Source: Nitrospirota bacterium (GTDB lineage Bacteria > Nitrospirota > UBA9217). From it: a DNA stretch of 64,000 nt. Every line of letters begins with the position of its first letter. Position 1 is the first letter of the stretch. This document shows positions 1 to 23,639 of this stretch, piece after piece. Below the pieces are notes generated by a model that did not search any database, was not told the origin of the DNA, and saw only the letters and a list, made by a program, of their open reading frames with translations. A program made the position numbers and the translations under genes. The stretch spans positions 256,001 through 320,000 of the forward strand of contig CAVUHW010000026.1 in NCBI GenBank assembly GCA_963741205.1. The letters are read 5' to 3'.

Positions 1-1829
1 CGGGCGTGAACTCGTCCATGAGCGGATCGATGAGATGGAGCGGTGAGATGTACCGAAGGATGTACCGCTTGCGGCGGAACTCGTAAACGCTCTCCATCTG
101 TTGTTGATCCTCGCCGGCCTTTGTAAGCAGCTCGCGGATGATCCCTGAGTAGATCATCGAGGTATTGCCCTCTCCCGCGACGAGCGTTATGTCCTGTCCC
201 TGTTTCAGGATTTCCGTCGCCCCGGGCATATTCACGAGAGTCGGCACTTTCAATTCCCGGCAAAGCGCCGCCATGTGGCTGGTTTGAGAGCCCGTCTCGG
301 TTACAATCGCGGCGACATAGGGCATGGCCCTGACAAAGAGCGAGGAATCATGAGGAGCGACCAGGATGGCCCCTTTCGGGATGGTAGCGATATCCTCGGG
401 ATTCCTGACAATAAAGACCATGCCGGCGCCGATGCCGCGCTGGACCACCATGCCGCGGTCTTGCGCAAGAATGGGGTGGTCTGTCGTAGAAGCGGCACTC
501 ACGCCCTTTGCCGGATCGGAGGCTTGATCCGCGGCCTGAACGTTCAAGGGACGGGCCTGGAGGATAAAGATCGCGCCTTTTTTATCGACGGCCCATTCAA
601 TGTCCCGGGGACTGCCGAAGTACCGTTCGATGGTCATGGCCTGTCTTGCCAGCGTTACTATTTGTTCAGGAGTGAGACAGGGCCGCGCTTGCAGCTCGTC
701 GGGGGTCTGGACCTCGACCGTCCCGCCCTTTGCGCTGCTCACGATCATGGATTTTTTAATGCCGTAGGTTGCCCGCACGAGTTCAGGGTCCGTTCCCTTT
801 TCGAACAACGTACAGGTCTGTCTCCGTCTTGCCTTCGACGATCGCTTCTCCCAGCCCCCAGGCAGCGCTGATGATCAGCCTGTCACGGTCGCCTTCCGGT
901 GTCGTCGAATAGATGACTCCGCTCGTCTCGGCCCCGACCATGACCATGCAGCCGACCGCCATTTTGAGCGCACTGATGTCATAGCCCAGCTGTTGCTCGT
1001 AGGCGACAGCCTTGCCCGAGTAGAGGCTGGCAACCACCTTTCGGTACGCCCGCTCCACTTCCTGGAGATCCAGGGAAACATTCAGGACGGTCTTGAACTG
1101 GCCGGCAAAGGAATGGCCGCCGTCCTCCTCCCCGGCGCTGCTCCGGAGCGCGAGGAAGGAGCCGTTGTTGCGCCTGCGTATCTTGTCCAGGGCCTTCTGG
1201 ATCCTGCGGCTGACCTCCGGAGGGATTTCTCCATGAAGGATGAGCTCCTGAAGTTCCTGGAGGGCCGAGTCCGACAACGAGGAGTCCTTCGTCAGCTGTT
1301 CGATATGGCCGTCAAGGCGATTATGTTTGACGAAGGCATCAAACCCCGCGGTCGTGATGACGAAGCCGTCGGGGACCGAAAGGTGCAACTGGTTTTTTAC
1401 CTCGGCGAGGTTGGCGTTCTTGCCGCCCACGATCTGCGACACACCCCAGGGGATCTCTTCGAAAAACAGAACGGGCGCCCCTGCCGCCGGCAACGCCTCG
1501 TCCACCATGCTGCTGATCAGGGTGTCGATGTGTTCGAAGGCTTCGCGCAGCCGTTCGTACCTGCCCTGCGTGAGCGCATCGAAAGCACGGAGCGAATTCT
1601 CCATGTCGTTCCTGAGGGAGGCATAGGCCTTTTTAACGTAAACAATATCGAAGAGATAGTCGCCGCCCAGCTTTTCGCCCATGTCCGTTATGGTTTCCAG
1701 TGCGCGGTTGTTGCTTTCGAGTACACCCTTGAAGCGGTCGAATATTGCCCTGAACGCAGCGGGATCGGAAGGGAACTTCCTGCGGGAGAAGGTCCGGGAC
1801 AGGGAGGATACTATGGATTTTATGTCCAT
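1..1829 (-). CDS. PEP/pyruvate-binding domain protein (PEP synthase/pyruvate-water dikinase-like); frameshifted, 3' end beyond window
   Basis: ORF 783..1829 has GGKNANL, VPDGFVIT, ALRSSAGEEDG..SFAGQF and AWGLGEAIVEG motifs. Downstream frames give the phospho-His domain motif GSQTSHMAALCRELKVP near 190-300. Confidence 0.85.
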
Positions 1830-2041: not shown

Positions 2042-2411
2042 TCACGCCGTGCCGAGCGCCCGTCTGATCGACTCCTTCAGTTCCTTGATCTTGACCGGCT
2101 TGGGGAAAAAGTCGTGCACGTCCCCCCGGAGCGCCTCGATCGCGGCGTCGAGATTGGCGAAGGCCGTGATCATGATCACCGTCGTGGCAGGGTAGCTCTT
2201 TTTACGGTCCGGAGCACCTCCATGCCGTCGATGCCCTTCATCTTGTAATCGGTCACGACAACGTGGAATTTTTTTTCCTTCAGCCGCGTCAGCGCCGGCT
2301 CGGCATTCAGAAAGGTCTCGACCTCGTAGCCTTCCTGTTCGAGCGACAATTTCGCCATGTCGCCCACGATCTTCTCATCGTCAATGACCATGATGCTGTA
2401 TCATTATCCAT
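2042..2411 (-). CDS. Single-domain response regulator (REC), frameshifted
   Basis: VIDDEKIVG...VVTDYKMKGIDGMEVL, then VIMITAFANLDAAIEALRGDVHDFFPKPVKIKEL in a shifted frame. Confidence 0.9.
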
Positions 2412-2430
2412 TATTGCTTGTCTCCTCTTT

Positions 2431-3836
2431 TTACGCATGACTCATGAACATGGGCAGCTCGATGGTAAAGGTCGTGCCGACCCCCACTTTGCTCTCCACC
2501 CTGATCTCGCCTTTATGGTTTTTTATGATGCCGTAGCTGACCGAAAGCCCCAGGCCCGTCCCGCCCTCGCCCTTGGTGCTGAAAAAGGGATCGAAGATGT
2601 GCGGCAGGAACTCGGGGGGTATGCCCTTGCCCGTGTCCATCACCGTGATCTCGACGGAATCCCCGCCCTTCCCTGGCCGTCGACGCGATAAACAGCCTTC
2701 CTCCCGCGGTCATGGCCTGGACGGCGTTCGTGATGAGATTGACGAGCACCTGCTGGATCTGGTGCTCGTCGATGAACAGATGCGGCAAGCCCGCTGTCCA
2801 GATTCACCATGGTCTCGATATTCGACACATCGATCATGTTCTGGACCAGCGTGAGCGTCTTCTGGATCACGCTGTTGATGTCCGCTTCTTTCGGGTTGCG
2901 CGTCCTTGGGCTTCGAAAAGTCCAGAAGGTTCTTGACGATCTTGCGGATTCGCTCGGTTTCCGCGTCCACCTTGTTCATGAACTCCGATCCGGTCCTTTT
3001 CGCTCAGCTTCGGCGTACAGCTCCGCATAGGTCTGGGCGATCATGGAGATATTGTTCAGGGGATTGGTGATCTCATGCGCGACGCCGGCAGTGAGGATGC
3101 CGAGGGAGGCGAGCTTCTTGGACTGGATGATCTCTTCTTCCCGGTGCGCCAGCTCCTCGGACATGGAATTGATCGCCGTGATGACCGAGCCAAGCTCGTC
3201 CCTGGACTGGAAGCCTTCGATCCGGTTGAAGTTGCCCTCGGAGATGGACTTGGTCAGCTTTTCGATCTGCCCTGAGCGAGCGCACGATCTTCTGCGAGAT
3301 GAAATGGCTGATCAAAAGCGCCGAAACCAGGATGGCCCAGAAGGAAAAGATCAGGATGTGCTTCGAGCTCAGGATGATGTCGTTCACGCGTTTTCGCTCG
3401 AGACGCGTGATGGAATCGGAATATTCCTTCAGTTTCCTCCCCGCCGCCCGGATACTCGCCTCCAGCTCGGGGTCCTGGAGGCTCTTGCGGTCCGCTTCCT
3501 CGATGACCTTCGATAGAACTTCAGATGGGATTCGAGCTGCCTGAGGTCGGTCTCTCCGATCGCCCGGATGATGTCGTCTTTCGCGGCCTTGATGGTCTCC
3601 TGCGTGGCAAGGATCTTTTCCTGGATCTCGGCGAGCGCTTTTTTGTCATGGTACAGGAAATAATTCTTCTCCGACAGCCTCATTTCGAGGAAGGACGCGT
3701 TCAGATCATCGGCGATCTCCACGAACCGGAGCTTCGTCAGTACCAGGCTCATGTTCTGAAAGGCGAAAAAGCCGATCAGGATGATGAAGGCGCCGTTGAT
3801 GATGTTCGATATGATGAGTTTGTTTTCTATTTTCAT
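2431..3836 (-). CDS. Membrane HAMP-domain sensor histidine kinase, split by several indels
   Basis: N-terminal TM and periplasmic domain, second TM, H-box [13 protein letters not shown]-box [14 protein letters not shown]-boxes DTGKGIP and GTGLGLS in successive fragments. Confidence 0.9.
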
Positions 3837-4020: not shown

Positions 4021-5262
4021 TTAGCACTCACATCGGCACCGGGACTCCGGGATCTCCGCCTGTTCCTTCCTGACCGGCAAATACCACAGGAGGCCGTCCA
4101 CGGCCATGAAGACGCCGGCCGCAATCAGAAGGACATCGAAGGCGGTAAGCAGGCTGAACCCGAAATAGTGCATAAGCCCGAGCCCGACGCTCGTAAAGGA
4201 CACGCCGGTCCGGATAAACGCCAGACCCGTCCGCGCGCGGGCGTAGATCGTGCGGTAGCAGGCGGCCACGGTGCGCTGCGCCGCGAGCACGTTCCGTCGC
4301 CGCGCCAGGTGCGTGCGTTCCCTGCTGGCCGGCTGAGGGATAGAGAATGGTGCTGTAGCCGCCGATGCAGTCGCCAAGCCGGGCGAGCATGGTCCCCTTC
4401 GTCGGCCGCTCGATGCTGCAGTGGTCAAGGTCGTGGTAATTCTCAAGGAACTGCATGGTCGCCGACGTCACCTCAATGAGCGTCTGGTGGCCCGGCGTGC
4501 TCATCCTTGTTCTCCGCACGTTGAGATACCCGGTCAGCCCGAAGACGCCAAGGACCGCGCCCGCCGCGATCATCAACCAGTAGAAGACGGGGAGGATGGC
4601 GCCTGTCTGGCGGGTCCTCATGAGCACGATCGGACAGGGCGATGAGGCCCAGCCCCCAGCGGAGGATGGCGAGGTCCGTCCTGCCCTTGGCCAGATCGTT
4701 CCGGTAGCAGGCGAGCCTCGTCCTCCAGTGGGCCATGGTATTGCGCCAGAAGGCGAGGCCCGTCCGCTCCGTCCCGATCAGAAGGCCGGGTTTCGCATGC
4801 AGGTAATCCTGGATGAACCACTGGATATCTTCTTCGAGCGCCACCCAGAATTCATACCTCTCGGCCTTGATGGAGCGTCTTGACCTCCTCGAACATACCG
4901 CGGGTCCTGCGGGTTTGCCGCGGCTATAACAACCGTGTCGCCGTCATGGATGATCGGGAACCACTGGCTGAAGGAAAGCCGCTCGCTGTCGAGGCCCTCC
5001 AGGAAGTTCGGGAGGGATGGGCATCCGCTCGTCATATTCCACAAAGGGGCAGTTATAGTATTCCGACAGCGCAGCCAGGAGGTCCTTTTTCGCAACACCG
5101 TACTCCCGCATCAGGACCTGCTCGAGCTCGATGCCGCGGGCAACGGCAGTGCGTTCCGCGGCTCGCAGCCCGGCCTCCGTCAAAACGCCCCAGTCGAGCA
5201 GAATAAGGAACCGTTCGGCCTGCTGCCTCGGATTCTATATCATATGCGATCTTAGACGTCAT
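4021..5262 (-). CDS. GspE/PilB N-terminal (T2SSE_N/MshEN-like) domain plus 2 DUF202-like membrane repeats (paralog B), frameshifted
   Basis: Joined fragments: LLAALSEYYNCPFVEYDE..WFPIIHDGDTVVIAAANPQD, then two [LAxxRT]n-G+2TM repeats. Start overlaps the 3' end of paralog A. Confidence 0.75.
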
Positions 5263-6901
5263 CGTGACTGAACACCGCCTTTTTCCATGATCGGGCGGGC
5301 TTGCCGTAATCCGGGACCGCGATCTCCATTTCGCCGTAACAATAGGGAAACTGTTCCCGCGTGCGTTCGGCCGGAATATGCCAGAAGAGCCCGTCGGCGA
5401 TAAAGAGCAGTGCCCGCAATGATCATCGCTGCGTCGAAGACGGTCCAGAGGACATTTCCGGTCCCGAAATACACCAGGAGCCCCAGACCCACGGCTGAGA
5501 TGCTCATCCCCGTTCTGAGGAGCGCCATCCCCGTCCTGGAACGGGCCATGACCGTCCTCAGCCGGGCCATGACGTTTCGCCGTCTCCGCAAGGAGCGTGC
5601 GCTCCAGGGCAAGGCCCGTCGTGGCCCATATCCCGGGCGAGGCAAACCCCTTGACAGGGGGAGCTGTCCGCAAGGGGCTCGGAGCCGTCATGCCTGAACC
5701 GGGGAGGGAACACAACATCCCAGATGCCGGACTTATGCTCCGTTCTCTTGACGGCCTCACTGCTCTCCCGGCCCGCGCGGCGTCCGGGAAGATACCAGTA
5801 AAAACCCTCCGCCACCATCAGTGATCCCTGCAAGGATAAGCGCCGCGTCCGCAATGCTCCAGGGCCCGGCAGGGAACTGCCTGAGGAGGGCGACACCGAG
5901 CCCGATAAAGGCGAACCCCGTGCGCGTAAACGAAAGCCCCGTGCGCGACCGCGCCATGAGCGTCCGGTAGCACGCGAGCGCCGTGCGTTCTTCGGCAAAG
6001 TCCGTGCGGTCGCTTGCCAGGAACCTCCGCCGCATGACCGGAGAAAGGCTGTTCCACCCGCTCCGGAGCTCGTCCGCGCCCGGCGACCTCGGCGCTCCTC
6101 AGGAAAGACCGGATCGTCGCCGGGGTTTGACACTTCGAGCACCGTCGTCCCGCCCGTAGGCTCCGTTGATCCGCAGACGACCAGCTTCTTCCCGACCCTG
6201 CGGGCGGGCAGGTACCACTTGAAGCCGTCTACGGCCATGACGAGCCCGTGACGCGAACAGGAGCCCTTCGACGACAGTCAGATATCCAAGGCCGAAGACC
6301 CTGAACAGGACGAGCGAGATCGTGATGAAGGAGACGCCGGTGCGGAGGAAGGCAAGCCCCGTCCTGCCCTTCGCAAGCGAGGTCCGATAGGAGGCAAGCA
6401 TCGAACGCCGGTCCGCGAGAAAGGTGCGGACCTTGGCAAGCGGCGTCCTGCCGCCGGCGGGGGGAAGCCGGGATTGAGGTCCTGATTGTGTTCTATGATC
6501 CTGACGAGGTCCGACGGAAGGGCGACTTTGAAGTCGATCTGACTTACACCGAGGGTCTTCCGTACATCATCCAGCACGGCCGGATCGTCGGGACGGCAGG
6601 CGATGACCTCGGCGCTGTCCCCTGTGATCGACAGGGGAAGCCAGAGCGCGCGTTTGAGCCGCTCCATGTCCATCCGCCGTGTGATCTGCTGAGAAACGAT
6701 GACACTTTCGTCATACTCCACGAAGGGGACGCCGTAGTATTCCCCGAGACAGAAGAGGACCTCATGCCTCGGCACTCCCCTCCGGAGAAGCAATTCCTCG
6801 ACAGGAAGGGACGATTCGCCTGCATCACGGACTACGCTCTCCAGGTCCTGCGCGGAGATCTCGCCGCGGCTGACGAGCCTATAATATTTACTTTGCTCCA
6901 T
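5252..6901 (-). CDS. GspE/PilB N-terminal (T2SSE_N/MshEN-like) domain plus 3 DUF202-like membrane repeats (paralog A), frameshifted
   Basis: VLFCLGEYYGVPFVEYDE..WLPLSITGDSAEVIACRPDD, followed by three repeats such as FAEERTALACYRTLMARSRTGLSFTRTG+2TM..DG.WYLP. Confidence 0.75.
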
Positions 6902-6967: not shown

Positions 6968-7157
6968 TCAGGACTTCTTTTCTTCCTTATTATCCAGCGA
7001 AGGGGCATCCTGGCCGTCTTTCATGGCCTTTCTTGAACTCCCGGATGCTCTTGCCGAGCCCCTCTCCGAGCTCCGGGAGTTTTCCTGGTCCGAAGATGAT
7101 CAGGACGATCAGAAGTATCAGGATCAGGTGCATCGGCTGCATTAAACCTTCGAACAT
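6968..7157 (-). CDS. tatA: Twin-arginine translocase TatA/E subunit (1-nt indel)
   Basis: [43 protein letters not shown], translated manually; absent from the ORF track. Confidence 0.9.
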
Positions 7158-7177: not shown

Positions 7178-7600
7178 TCACAACCCGACGACATACACCG
7201 GGCAGGTCGCTCGGTCGATCACCTTCTCCACGATGTGATCGCCGAAAAGCCTGGTGAAGATGCCCTTTTTCTTCTTCGATCCCATGATGATGAGGTCGCA
7301 TTTTTCCTCTTCCGCGACCTCGACGATCCTGTCCGGCACGTCCCCTGACTCCAGCCGCGTCTTGACCATCGCGCCCTCGGCCTTCGCGATCTTGTTGATA
7401 TCGGAGACGGCCTGGGCCCCGCCGTCGTCCAGCACGTCGTTCAGGTTCTTGATGCCGGTCAGGTTCAGGTCGCCCTCGAACGGCTGGACCACCTTCACGA
7501 CGGTGATCCAGGTCCGCTCGTCCTGGGCCAGCTTGATCCCCTGCTTCAGGACTTCCTTGGAACCATTCAGCGCGATAAGAACTTTTCTATAGCCTTTCAT
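7178..7600 (-). CDS. Universal stress protein (single USP domain)
   Basis: YRKVLIALNGS..GDVPDRIVEVAEEEKCDLIIMGS..ATCPVYVV. Confidence 0.93.
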   Translation of the reverse strand: MKGYRKVLIALNGSKEVLKQGIKLAQDERTWITVVKVVQPFEGDLNLTGIKNLNDVLDDGGAQAVSDINKIAKAEGAMVKTRLESGDVPDRIVEVAEEEKCDLIIMGSKKKKGIFTRLFGDHIVEKVIDRATCPVYVVGL

Positions 7601-7727
7601 GTCGGTTCACTCCTTCATACTGAACTATCGAAAGTACGTTACTGGATACTGATGCTATACTGCTCTAGACATCGGATGCGGAATTGCCAACTTATTTCAT
7701 CACATCCTGATCGATCCTCCGCTGCAT

Positions 7728-8592
7728 CTACTTCGCGATCAATATCGGGCACGTGGCATAGGCGATGACCCGCTCCGCCGTGCTCCCCATGATCGCCTTG
7801 TCCACGCCGCTCCATCCGTGGGTCCCCACGACGATCAGATCATGCTTCATCGTGTCGGCGATCTCCACGATCTTGTCGCCGGCGTGGCCTTCCTGCACGA
7901 CCGCCTTGATCTCCACCCCAAGCGCCGAGGCGAGCTTTTTCGCCCCTTCTACGATCTTCTCCGCCTCCTGGAAAAGGCTTTTCTTGACGGACTCGGTCTT
8001 GAAGAAGTCCATCATTTCCTCGTAGCGGGGGATCACATAGAGGACTGACACCTCTGCGCCGTCCACCTTCGACAGTTCGCAGGCCCGCGTCAGCGCCTTC
8101 TTGCTCGATTCGGAGCCGTCAAAGGGGACCAGCAGGGAATGGTAGCTCCCGGTGCATTTGGAGCACGGCTTCTTCACCACCAGCACGTCGCAGGGCGAAT
8201 TCAGGATGACCTGCGAGGTCACGCTGCCCATGAGCAGCCGTTTGAGGCCCTTCCTCCCGTAGGTCCCGAGGGCGATCAGGTCCGCGTTGTTGCCTGAGCG
8301 CCGTTTCCACGATCACCTGGGGCGGCTCGCCTTCGCACACGAGGGATTCGACATTTCCGTTCAGGCCGAACTCGGATTTGATGTCGTTCTTCGCCAGCCG
8401 GCATACCTGCGTGCCGATCTCGAACCGCCTTTCCATCTGCGACGGCAGGATGGCGAACTCCTCCTGGTCGAAGTACACCGCATGGACCAGATGGAGTTTC
8501 CCGCCGTGATTTTTCACCCAGAGCGAGGCTTCCTTCAAGGCCGCCTTGCTCGATACCGACTCATCATATCCGACGACAATGGAGTTGTACAT
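7728..8592 (-). CDS. Tandem-domain universal stress protein, frameshifted
   Basis: MYNSIVVGYDES..GEPPQVIVE, then MGSVTSQVILNSPCDVLVV..GSTAERVIAYATCPILIAK. Confidence 0.9.
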
Positions 8593-9401
8593 TAATGAGA
8601 ACCTCCGCCTTTCCTGAACACCAGGCTCACGCCGAAACCCGCTCCCAGCGCGATGCCGATGGAGAGGATACCGTAGAACGCCGGCGTTGTTCTTCGCCAT
8701 GGTAGCGAGCGTCTTGACCATGCCGACCTGCTCGACGTTCACCTTGGACTCGGCCTGCTCCACGACCTTGCCGTTCTTTACCGCATAGACCGTGACCAGA
8801 TAGTCGCCGGGCGCGGCCTGATAGGGCCAGTCGGTCAGAATGTAATATTCCTGCCGCCCGTCGGCGTTCGTCTTTGTCTCGATCTTTCCGAACGATGTGG
8901 CGTAGACGTGCGAATCTTCCTTGAACTTCACGAACTCATCGAACCATTTGGCCTTTTCTTCCTCGTTCGCGACCGGGGTTATCTCAACATGTTTCTCCAG
9001 GGCGGGGTATCCGATCGTATATTTTTCCAGTTCTTCCCTGCTCAGGATATCTTCCAGGCTTTTTCGTGCTGAAGACCGCGTAGAAGTTCGGGACATGCTC
9101 GAACTTCAGGGTCCCCACGTTCATCCAGAGCATGCCGCCCGACCTTGCCCTTCTGCTTCAGCGTCTGGTGCCCTTCGGGGGCGGTTATCTTGATGACCAG
9201 GTCCACGCCCGGATCCGACTCGCCGCGGACGCTCACGGTGCTGCCGTGATAGAAGAAGTCGATGGTGATGTGGTCATGGTTCGCCCTTGCCGTCAGCATG
9301 GCCGACGCCGTTCCCGCAAACCCGAAGGATAAGAACCAGTGCCAATACGGCGATTGCCGTAATTCCCCGATTTCGTGATTCCGCATTCCGAACTTCTTCA
9401 T
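8592..9401 (-). CDS. TIGR02186-family transmembrane protein (TSUP partner), frameshifted
   Basis: Signal peptide, ITIDFFYHGSTVSVRGE, LKQKGKV.G..WMN and a C-terminal TM; directly after the TSUP gene. Confidence 0.8.
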
Positions 9402-10330
9402 TTAATGTCCTCCCGCCTGCGATATGAGTAATGACGGTGTCAAGGTAAGTTCGAAAACGATCTTCACGGTCACGGCGAGCACGATCCCCGCGAGAAGGAT
9501 CTTGAGCTGGTCGGCCTTGAGCTTCCGGCCGAACACCGCTCCGATCTGGGCGCCGACGGTGGAACCCGAGGAGCAGCAGCACCGCCAGCACGAAATCCAC
9601 GCTGTGGTTCGTATAGGCCTGCAGGAACGTCACCTCGATGCAGGTGAAGAGGATCTGGAACAGGCTCGTTCCGACGACCACATGCATCGGCATCCGGAGC
9701 ATATAGACCATGATCGGCACCATCAGGAACCCGCCGCCCACGCCCATGATCGCGGCAAGCACGCCCACGAACGCTCCCGAGAACGATCGGCACGAGGACG
9801 GAATGGGTGATGCCGGACTTCTCGAAACGGGTCTGGAGCGGGAGCGACTTCAGGAACCTGCCCACGGCCGATTCTTTCTCTTCCTTTACCTCAACGGCCT
9901 GCGCGCCCTTTTTCTTCTTCATGCTCTGGAGGCTTTCGATGAACATGTAGCCGCCGACGATGCCGAGCATGAGCATATAGGTCATCTTGATCACGAAATC
10001 GGCGTTGCCCATGGCATGGAGCAGCTTGATCGCCTGAACGCCGACGATGCCGCCCAGGAAACCGCCTACCAGAAGGTAAAGCCCCATCTTGAAATCGACG
10101 TTGCCGACCTTCCAGTGCGCATAGGTGCCGGACGTAGACGCGGCCACGATCTGGTTCGAGTCGGTCGCCGCCGCCACGGTCGAAGGAATGCCGAACATGA
10201 TGAGAAGCGGCGTCATGAGAAAGCCTCCGCCCACGCCGAACAGGCCGGAAAGCAGCCCCACGGCAAGCCCGAGCCCCACAGGGACCAGGATATTGATACT
10301 TGTCAATGCCACCGGTAAATACAAATGCAT
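9402..10330 (-). CDS. Sulfite exporter TauE/SafE (TSUP) family transporter, frameshifted
   Basis: MHLYLPVA..GLLSGLFGVGGGFLMTPLL and second repeat AAIMGVGGGFLMVP..VVGTSLFQI. Confidence 0.92.
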
Positions 10331-21895: not shown

Positions 21896-23639
21896 ATGGA
21901 GAACAAAACTATTAACAAGAGAACATTGTTCAATAGAGACGGATCTCAGACAGCGGAAATTCTTACTGTTGTTTTGAACAATATTGCGCAGGGCATGGTC
22001 GTTGTCGGGCCAGACTATGCCGTGCTGGCATTCAACAAACAGTTGGAGACACTTTTTGGATTGCAGCAGGGAGCACTCGAGGTAGGCCGTGATTTCAGAG
22101 ATGTTCTCAAGGTATGGGCTGATGTAACGGGGCAAACACAGGATATCCTTAAACAGACTTTGCGAGAGCTTGATCAGCCCAATCCCTTTGAAATTGAATT
22201 TCCGCAAACGATACAAGGGGTTAATCAATGGTGCCTGCTGTCCCATAATCCTTTGCCCTCAAAGGGATTTGTAAGGACATATTCTGACATCACCGCGAGG
22301 AAAAAGGCGGATGAGCAGCATAGGTATGATGCCTTCCACGATCCCCTGACAGGCCTTCCGAACCGGGCACTTTTCATGGACCGGCTCCAACACGTCATCA
22401 CCGCGTCTCAACGACGGCAGGGCACTTCTAACTATGCGGTCTTTTTCCTCGACATGGACCGGTTTAAGATCATCAACGACAGCCACGGTCATACCGTCGG
22501 CGATCAACTTCTCGTCGTCGTCGGTCGCAAGCTGGCCGATTGCATCCGGCCCGGAGATACCATCGCGCGGCTGGGTGGTGATGAATTTGCCCTTCTCCTG
22601 CAGAACATCAACGATCCCGCTTACACGGTCAACGTCGCCGAGCGGATCCGGGAAAAATTGGCAGCTCCCCTCGATATCAAAGGCCATAGGATATTCACGT
22701 CGATCAGCATCGGAATCGCCTTAGGCTCGGAAGGCTATGAACGGCCGGAACAAGTCCTGCGCGACGCGGACATCGCGATGTACGAGGCAAAAGGACGGGG
22801 AAATGCATCGTATGAGATCTTCGATATCAGGCTGCATGCCAATATCCTGGACCGAATGCAATTGGTAGCCGACCTGAGGGGAGCAGTCGACAATAAGGAG
22901 CTTACTCTCTACTATCAGCCCATCATCGACCTGAACACGCAGCAGTTGAAGGGATTTGAGGCACTCGTCCGATGGAATCATCCGAAGCGCGGGCTTATCT
23001 ACCCCATGGAGTTCATCCCCTTGGCAGAGGAACAGGGACTCATCTACCAGATCGGAGCATGGATTCTTCACGAAGCCTGCCGCGAGCTGAAATTGCTCCA
23101 GACGCGGTACCCCTCGCCAGCAGCCGCTTAATATGAGCATCAACATTTCAAGCAGGCAATTCTCTCAGCAGGACCTTGTCGGCATACTCTCCGAATGTCT
23201 CACAGAGACGGGCGTTGATCCGCACACCGTGATATTGGAAATCACCGAGAGTATGATCATGGAGAACGTCAGTGCCGCCGTGGAGACAATGAACCGCCTG
23301 CGCAACATGGGCGTACAGATCCATATTGATGATTTCGGCACCGGGCATTCTTCACTGGGCTACCTCCAACTCTTTCCGGTCAGTGCGCTCAAGATCGACC
23401 GCAGTTTTATCAACAAACTTACCACGAGCGGTGGCAATCAGGAAATCATCACACACATTGTTTCCTTGGCCAAGAGCCTGAATTTCGAGGTGATTGCCGA
23501 AGGAGTCGAGATGGAGCATCAATTAGCCAACATCAAGAATTTGCACTGCGGCTACGGCCAGGGTTTCCTCTTTGCCCGTCCCATGGCTTTTAATGCAATA
23601 GACGCGTGGATGCAAGAGCAGCAGCATCATCATCTATAA
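21896..23639 (+). CDS. PAS-GGDEF-EAL diguanylate cyclase/phosphodiesterase, frameshifted near 23125
   Basis: HDPLTGLPNR, RPGD I-site, RLGGDEF, FEALVRW, DDFGTGHSSL and IAEGVE. Confidence 0.93.

Follow-up and report, generated by a model that had tools for sequence, protein, structure and literature searches.

Two adjacent genes in a 64,000-nucleotide stretch of a Nitrospirota bacterium genome (contig CAVUHW010000026.1, positions 256,001 to 320,000; hereafter the window), which we call A and B, each encode an MshEN/GSPII-like N-terminal domain joined to hairpins of the DUF202 family, with three hairpin units in A and two in B. The best explanation of the data is that A and B are both genuine inner-membrane proteins, translated together, and complex prediction has them bind each other and close a ring of five units. 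The pair is closely associated with a histidine kinase, a single-domain response regulator and a dikinase related to phosphoenolpyruvate (PEP) synthase, a conserved partnership that adds to an earlier note on this DNA, made without database searches, in which A and B had been read as a channel gated by cyclic di-GMP (c-di-GMP). That the DUF202 ring forms a pore and works with these three partners as one transport module is a reading that we consider about as apt to hold as to fail. DUF202 is widespread in bacteria and its sole understood member is the eukaryotic VTC channel; A and B offer a tractable bacterial case, with a putative five-unit ring specified by two genes and candidate pore arginines that are invariant.

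Genes A and B and their relatives

A, B and the genes downstream of them lie on the minus strand, and all positions given here are those of the whole stretch. In the open reading frame (ORF) fragments of the window, Pfam places MshEN (PF05157) at 6278-6901 (E 9.3e-13, 48.4 bits for A), with a second, weak match at 4778-5098 (E 0.0066). DUF202 (PF02656, gathering score 23.4 bits) is found above its cut-off at 6099-6401 (24.9 bits) and 5757-6035 (29.4 bits), and below it at 5259-5645 (18.3 bits) and 4021-4446 (20.8 bits). All five intact A homologues scanned contain MshEN and three DUF202 stretches (37.8-55.9 bits), and an intact B of 409 amino acids at locus L006 has MshEN (E 1e-10, 41.9 bits) and one DUF202 stretch at a borderline 23.5 bits. 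The first unit of B is detected by the family's own unit profile only, and this profile counts three units in A and two in B. Pfam finds no T2SSE ATPase domain in the window fragments, in any of the five A homologues or in B, and the NCBIfam PilB model matches the A/B family at model positions 4-139 only, with 20-25 bits against a cut-off of 675. There is no type II secretion system or pilus gene within about 6 kb on either side of the pair. The earlier description of two paralogous genes led by a secretion-type N-domain without its ATPase, carrying 3+2 DUF202 units and standing apart from secretion and pilus genes, is thus borne out; of the two matches it expected, T2SSE_N and DUF202, Pfam returns MshEN PF05157 and DUF202, the latter above its own cut-off.

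The start codon of B (ATG, 5262-5260) lies within the last codons of A, 11 nucleotides before the A stop. As read in the window B ends at 4021, and in the frame that matches its homologues it ends at 4028 ('...PVPM*'), with the true stop probably at 4028-4030.

Compared with intact homologues, A changes frame at least six times and B at least four times. The same breaks occur equally in each neighbour compared, namely the genes for the PEP-synthase-like (PPS-like) protein, the response regulator, the histidine kinase, the double USP protein, Alph_Pro_TM and TauE; the genes compared between positions 1 and 10330 contain frequent single-nucleotide insertions, and gene calls there need frameshift-aware reading. 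Related contigs, about 90% identical and drawn from three DNA sequencing runs and one RNA-library run, are each one base shorter at the places where the frame switches, with the extra bases at 4336, 4629, 4878, 4900, 5230, 5411, 5584, 5821, 6086, 6106 and 6248/6249. These runs contained 5-7% of the sampled words, the mark of relatives and not of the window organism, and therefore provide no evidence on habitat or expression level; the RNA-library contigs span 22 of 30 bins of the stretch, which is no proof of transcription. In a six-frame search of 301 sampled Nitrospirota genomes, the A match in the window's own genome (G000) has three TGA codons and one TAA, and full-length A matches in the other 50 matching genomes have no stops (a few partial or adjacent matches carry one). 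Because the neighbours are equally broken, the related contigs lack the extra bases and the orthologues are intact, the breaks in A and B are most likely technical insertions introduced in assembly, in genes that are intact in the organism. Real decay of A and B into pseudogenes would be in keeping with ten or more frame switches across 2.9 kb, but is hardly tenable when the neighbours are broken alike, the extra bases are missing at exactly those places from the related contigs of four runs and intact copies are present in genomes of the same genus. Joining the frames, as the earlier note had done, agrees with intact orthologues of about 547 and 400 amino acids, and neither gene should be annotated as a secretion ATPase fragment or a pseudogene.

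A search with the N-domain recovered 149 proteins at E <= 1e-3 among 1455 candidates. The best 120 of the 149 all combine MshEN with DUF202, and nearly all are 539-589 amino acids long; their database entries read 'DUF202 domain-containing' or 'YidH family'. Over the N-domain, A is 95% identical to its closest intact homologue, P0001, and mean column identity is 67% for A (30 sequences) and 66% for B. In a survey of loci using one genome per species, 187 relatives were found and the best 80 loci kept, almost all of them from metagenome-assembled genomes of Nitrospirota, Thermodesulfovibrionales or Dissulfurispiraceae; source names of relatives also include Dissulfurimicrobium and Syntrophobacteraceae. 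Across the phylum, A is present in 51 of the 301 genomes, including 36 of 63 in the family of the window organism and 12 of 14 in its genus, and the same six-frame search found it in 0/50, 0/28 and 0/25 genomes of several other families.

A B-type gene immediately follows A in 79 of the 80 loci, and the remaining locus stops 86 nucleotides past A, as expected from the earlier proposal that the two genes occur together. B ORFs are 397-421 amino acids long in 76 of the 79; of the other three, a contig end truncates one, another is split and the third, of 870 amino acids, continues into the kinase. In this last ORF (L081:7580-10192) the N-domain and first unit of B run into HAMP-HisKA-HATPase_c, either as a fusion of B with the kinase or through a sequencing frameshift, and with one locus of the 80 showing it, it is not relied on here.

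The unit and the predicted A:B ring

An AlphaFold2 (AF2) model of A (pLDDT 81.7, pTM 0.76) has a GSPII-fold N-domain and three long-helix hairpins, in each of which a first helix of 52-55 residues leads to another long helix. In P0001 the unit profile places the three units at residues 149-239, 287-377 and 421-515, and the corresponding AF2 helices are at 152-203 and 209-237, 287-341 and 348-387, and 423-477 and 482-515. The C-terminal 23 or so residues of each long helix are hydrophobic and constitute the first transmembrane helix (TM1), and the first 30 or so form a cytoplasmic extension of Arg-Thr heptads. In the model a unit consists of two membrane helices, and a soluble linker comes after them. 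All soluble parts are found on the same side of the membrane; the opposite side has loops of only a few residues. An alignment of 65 units from 13 loci reveals invariant arginine columns spaced at multiples of seven residues (R10, R17, R31 and R38, with R24 nearly invariant), each usually followed by threonine, and three glycine columns are also invariant.

The A/B pair of L006 was submitted to complex prediction with each chain given as an alignment and with three controls. The A:B runs score ipSAE 0.78, 0.78 and 0.79 against 0.00 for the best control, a mark that 58 of 80 solved complexes and two of 110 mismatched pairs attain; contact agreement between the runs is at least 65% and partner pLDDT at least 65. 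Two seams are predicted. In the first the long helix of A unit 1 (152-202) packs on that of B unit 2 (310-363), and in the second A unit 3 (423-476) packs on B unit 1 (148-213), with contacts spaced i, i+3/4, i+7. A unit 2 meets B solely at residues 283-290, just ahead of its long helix. With A1 on B2, A3 on B1 and A2 away from the interface, the contacts fit the closed order A1-A2-A3-B1-B2. Because the ladder arginines, and the alanines four residues on, occur in both kinds of seam, both residues would face the centre of the ring. The suggestion that A and B form a complex of five units is thus supported by the complex model, which contains both of the seams that a closed ring requires.

Partner genes and relatives of the DUF202 unit

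The window and L006 share the gene order TauE, Alph_Pro_TM, double USP, USP, (TatA), A, B, histidine kinase, response regulator and PPS-like dikinase (Table 1). Among loci with enough flanking sequence, the kinase lies directly downstream of B in 60 of 68, the response regulator in 56 of 67 and the PPS-like gene in 48 of 55. The upstream block is looser and recurs in roughly 53-69% of loci with room: the single USP gene in 40/76, the double USP gene in 43/70, Alph_Pro_TM in 46/67 and TauE in 43/64.

Table 1. Coordinates of A, B, their domains and the neighbouring genes in the window
Feature	Position	Strand	Basis
Gene A: MshEN/GSPII-like N-domain and three DUF202 hairpin units, about 547 amino acids with insertions read through	5252..6901	minus	Pfam, intact homologues
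A N-domain: MshEN/GSPII fold, c-di-GMP motif degenerate	6467..6901	minus	Pfam E 9.3e-13, Foldseek
A unit 1 (approximate): long Arg-Thr heptad helix into TM1, then TM2	6185..6457	minus	unit profile
A unit 2 (approximate)	5768..6041	minus	unit profile; Pfam DUF202 29.4 bits
A unit 3 (approximate)	5351..5636	minus	unit profile
Gene B: MshEN-like N-domain and two DUF202 hairpin units, about 400 amino acids	4021..5262	minus	Pfam, intact B in L006 (409 amino acids)
B unit 1 (approximate), divergent, alone below Pfam threshold	4502..4778	minus	unit profile, L006 B residues 162-252
B unit 2 (approximate)	4054..4332	minus	unit profile, residues 309-401; Pfam 20.8 bits in fragment
Histidine kinase (transmembrane sensor, HAMP, HisKA, HATPase_c), frameshifted	2410..3836	minus	Pfam on L006 orthologue
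Single-domain response regulator (receiver only)	2054..2418	minus	L006 orthologue comparison, Pfam
PEP-synthase-like dikinase, first 600 or so residues; C-terminal end beyond window start	1..1811	minus	orthologue comparison
TauE/SafE, Alph_Pro_TM (TIGR02186), double USP and single USP block upstream of A	7178-10330	minus	
tatA-like gene	6990-7157		

The PPS-like protein of L006 has 863 amino acids and matches PPDK_N (1.4e-75) and the phospho-histidine mobile domain PEP-utilizers (2.6e-19) in Pfam, and it scores 329 bits with the NCBIfam PEP synthase model, for which the cut-off is 598. Where the PEP/pyruvate barrel would be, its C-terminus has an alpha/beta domain of about 300 residues for which there is no match in Pfam, in PDB sequences or, by Foldseek, among PDB folds; in the ESM Atlas it matches unnamed Thermodesulfobacteriota clusters only (0.90-0.92). 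This domain also defines a larger paralogous family, with forms of 850-900 and 1060-1090 amino acids at 30-45% identity, and the window's own genome has two such paralogues (C14:82530-83324 and C14:77089-77652).

The C-terminal domain has 104 matches in the 301 Nitrospirota genomes, 50 of them at E <= 2.8e-98, then a clear gap to 1.8e-64 for the match that follows. With an orthologue cut of E <= 1e-98, chosen after this gap in scores had been seen, A occurs together with a PPS-like orthologue in 46 genomes, A alone in five, the orthologue alone in four and neither in 246, counts that are not phylogenetically independent; the late choice of cut and the shared ancestry both lessen what this association can say for a common module. 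Four of the five genomes with A alone have at least 330 contigs or at most 78% completeness, and the fifth has about 170 contigs and 98% completeness.

A link between DUF202 and response regulators recurs in another lineage. The unit profile was searched against 1.84 billion representatives and matched 3094 proteins at E <= 1e-3, 175 of them at E <= 1e-10, with A-type (three stretches) and B-type (two stretches) proteins at the top. Members of the P0148 family have a single unit, with additional Arg-Thr heptads ahead of it, joined to a receiver (REC) domain (Response_reg E 1.2e-27, DUF202 E 4.9e-6), and P0274 is similar. This DUF202-REC fusion is found at full or near-full length in eight metagenome loci, and all five with room have a PPS-like gene directly downstream, whose product is about 31% identical to the Nitrospirota PPS-like protein over its whole length.

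Other architectures were also recovered. In P0141 (294 amino acids) and P0146 (373 amino acids) an unbroken run of about 20 Arg-Thr heptads precedes a single unit and would form a basic coiled-coil stalk of great length. P0218 is a singleton of 476 amino acids with five units in one chain and a eukaryote-like composition, known from a single Logan contig of 2020 nucleotides, and is possibly a single-chain pentamer. Four matches were set aside. P0273 (MshEN, DUF202 and REC) is probably a deletion or chimera, because its first 256 or so residues are 98% identical to P0275, an ordinary A protein of 566 amino acids; P0232 (DUF202, half of a REC domain and PPS-like) looks like a deletion variant and is used for gene order only; and P0201 and P0213 are false matches that the unit profile makes to coiled coils.

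Possible functions and comparison with known systems

The reports on VTC (PMC9911596; 10.1101/2023.01.27.525886) describe a 3:1:1 pentamer in the order Vtc3-Vtc4-Vtc1-Vtc1-Vtc1, with fifteen helices, a pore lined by five TM1 helices, basic rings (K24/K698/K622 and R31/R705/R629) required for polyphosphate translocation and an inter-subunit 'ionic lock' between E30 and R83, and the earlier note had given this 3:1:1, five-unit architecture correctly. On the best explanation, A and B would pair 1:1 and their 3 + 2 hairpins would close into a pseudo-pentameric ring, with the five long helices as its inner circle and the invariant arginines stacked into five or six positive rings. These rings would extend the two basic rings of yeast VTC into a cytoplasm-facing, anion-selective vestibule and pore. 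The N-domains would act as cytoplasmic docking or regulatory modules that have lost the c-di-GMP motif. The membrane kinase would sense a signal and phosphorylate the response regulator, which, as its fusion to a DUF202 unit elsewhere hints, would control the pore, and the dikinase, using ATP by way of a phospho-histidine, would make or load a phosphorylated or otherwise anionic cargo.

Several points weigh against this reading. Five of the 80 loci (L021, L025, L031, L047 and L051) have the order A-A'-B, and gene count therefore does not fix the total at five; the tandem A-type genes may provide one B with a choice of three-unit partners, and yeast likewise has the alternative subunits Vtc2 and Vtc3. 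The 3+2 count proposed earlier consequently stands as the rule, but the strict total of five does not. In the predicted complex the A3-B1 seam has contacts about five residues off the homologous register, and the ring is read from the predicted contacts; the high score may also reflect the model's knowledge of VTC-like rings, although VTC chains are not picked up by sequence with A, B or the unit profile. The five arginines of each ring may be neutralised by neighbouring Glu or Asp and serve in packing only. The AF2 model gives A/B units two membrane helices against three in VTC, and the position of E30, mapped by Pfam coordinates, is Ser, Gly or Ala in A/B. In Foldseek the whole A model matches the PDB through its N-domain, with no VTC chain among the matches listed, and the membrane part returns weak ABC-transporter matches alone (E >= 0.04); the comparison with VTC structures that the earlier note had suggested, as made with the A model, thus gives no support to a fold-level likeness of the membrane part. 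Profiles of A, B and the unit find no VTC chain among PDB sequences at E <= 10, and their matches to Kelch, TetR and malate synthase entries are due to chance. Apart from the case of YidH taken up next, we know of no experiment on any bacterial DUF202 protein. Escherichia coli YidH emerged from a screen as a candidate D-alanine exporter and failed the transport assay (PMC10299036).

A serious rival keeps the ring and dispenses with transport. The A/B ring would be a membrane anchor or sensor, and through its stalk and MshEN domains it would recruit the response regulator and the dikinase or regulate them. The tight link to a two-component system and the direct DUF202-REC fusion would suit such a scaffold, as would the periplasmic loops of only a few residues, the N-domains, which belong to known docking modules (PilB-N with PilZ, 7lko, is among the Foldseek matches), and the 20 or so Arg-Thr heptads of P0141 and P0146, which fit a stalk better than a pore. 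However, the only DUF202 assembly of known function is a channel in which basic TM1 residues are needed for translocation (PMC9911596), and invariant arginine columns facing both neighbouring helices would be costly for a mere anchor, and we consider a scaffold without transport unlikely.

A bolder form of the pore reading makes A/B and the dikinase a bacterial counterpart of VTC, in which a phosphate-rich polyanion would be built or loaded and exported under control of the kinase and regulator, with polyphosphate or a phosphorylated polymer fed into the Arg-Thr-lined five-helix pore and across the cytoplasmic membrane. If true, this would provide a polyphosphate route of its own to a clade in which PPK1 (PF02503) and PPK2 (PF03976) were not found, either in the window's own genome (84% complete) or in ten relatives that are 98-100% complete, five with A/B and five without (G013, G095, G090, G238, G042, G005, G015, G024, G069 and G103). 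The two kinases are absent from carriers and non-carriers alike, however, and their absence therefore says nothing about function; we regard this form as a long shot.

Gating by c-di-GMP bound to the MshEN domains of a polyanion channel, as in the earlier note, is very improbable. By Foldseek the A N-domain is nearest to the c-di-GMP-bound PilF GSPII-B (8pdk, E 4.5e-5) and to MshE (5htl, 2.3e-4), and the genome is rich in GGDEF genes (23 matches), both of which would favour it. But XpsE (2d28, 1.8e-3), which has a degenerate domain, shares the fold, as does PilB-N (7lko), with TM-scores of 0.63-0.73 relative to target across these matches. The c-di-GMP-binding MshEN motif, as defined in PMC12943098 and PMC5013675, occurs in none of the 30 A and 33 B sequences, whether in its strict, loosened or relaxed form (the last being the PHI-BLAST pattern of Wang et al. 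2016); when Gly3 is dropped it occurs in 1/30 A and 0/33 B. With the two-motif signature missing throughout, gating by c-di-GMP is unsupported. One of the 23 GGDEF matches lies in the window itself, at about 22331-22804 on the plus strand (G000 C26:278331-278804).

By analogy the N-domains of A and B are most likely cytoplasmic docking or regulatory modules, perhaps in the manner of PilB-N with PilZ. They share their fold with MshE, PilF, PilB and XpsE, but differ from those proteins in having no T2SSE ATPase and no c-di-GMP motif and in being fused to DUF202 hairpins. An MshEN domain is also said to be fused to the glycosyltransferase NfrB. MshEN is known outside ATPases more generally, in glycosyltransferases and other proteins (PMC5013675).

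Three further comparisons concern the partner enzyme, the arginine ladder and the DUF202 family. The PPS-like protein resembles PEP synthase and PPDK in its ATP-grasp and phospho-histidine mobile domains and differs from them in having no recognised PEP/pyruvate TIM barrel. The phosphate-selective porin OprP, an outer-membrane beta-barrel trimer in which a file of arginines passes an oxyanion from site to site, has no homology to A/B, and the likeness would be one of principle only. YidH, of about 115 amino acids in E. coli, belongs to the same Pfam family as A/B and has the same ERT/RT signature on TM1, but it is a single unit without N-domain or Arg-Thr stalk, both of which A/B possess. The only other DUF202 match in the window's own genome, L001 (G000 C30:27520-30678), is of this type: in its ORF 841-1728 a MarC-like membrane ORF runs into a canonical YidH-type DUF202 ('MANERTFLAWVRT'), by either a fusion or another frameshift. 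The four best PDB matches of its YidH-like part are Vtc1 chains, weak at E of about 0.4 ('ANERTFLAW' against 'ANERTFLSW').

In the accessible parts of the literature on DUF202 we found no treatment of the function of a bacterial member, and a search of main article text found no combination of DUF202 with MshEN, T2SSE_N or GSPII. As no description was found, the MshEN-DUF202 architecture and its set of partners appear to be undescribed so far.

The closest system remains VTC (PDB 7ytj and 8i6v), whose Vtc4-type proteins have the order SPX-VTC-DUF202 (PMC12388464). A and B belong to the same Pfam family and are predicted to share with it a pseudo-symmetric ring of five units, three alike and two different, with TM1 as the inner ring. 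Basic residues seven apart line this helix in both, and by Pfam coordinates K24 and R31 of Vtc1 align with R312 and R319 of P0001, two successive arginines of the ladder. In both systems, too, the channel or candidate channel is encoded beside, or fused to, an ATP-using enzyme. A and B depart from VTC in having no third helix to bear the ionic-lock arginine, and Pfam finds neither an SPX nor a TTM domain in A, B or their neighbours. Three units of A/B are strung together in one polypeptide and two in the other, a PEP-synthase-like dikinase is the partner enzyme, and five to six arginine rings on a cytoplasmic extension of about 30 residues would take the place of the two rings of VTC. The defined set of partners, a kinase, a regulator and a dikinase with a putative new substrate domain, narrows the search for a cargo. 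If the ring and its coupling to the dikinase hold, then the association of an ATP-using enzyme with a DUF202 pentameric pore either predates VTC or arose independently of it, and the large 'PEP synthase-like' family with its uncharacterised C-terminal domain would gain a role.

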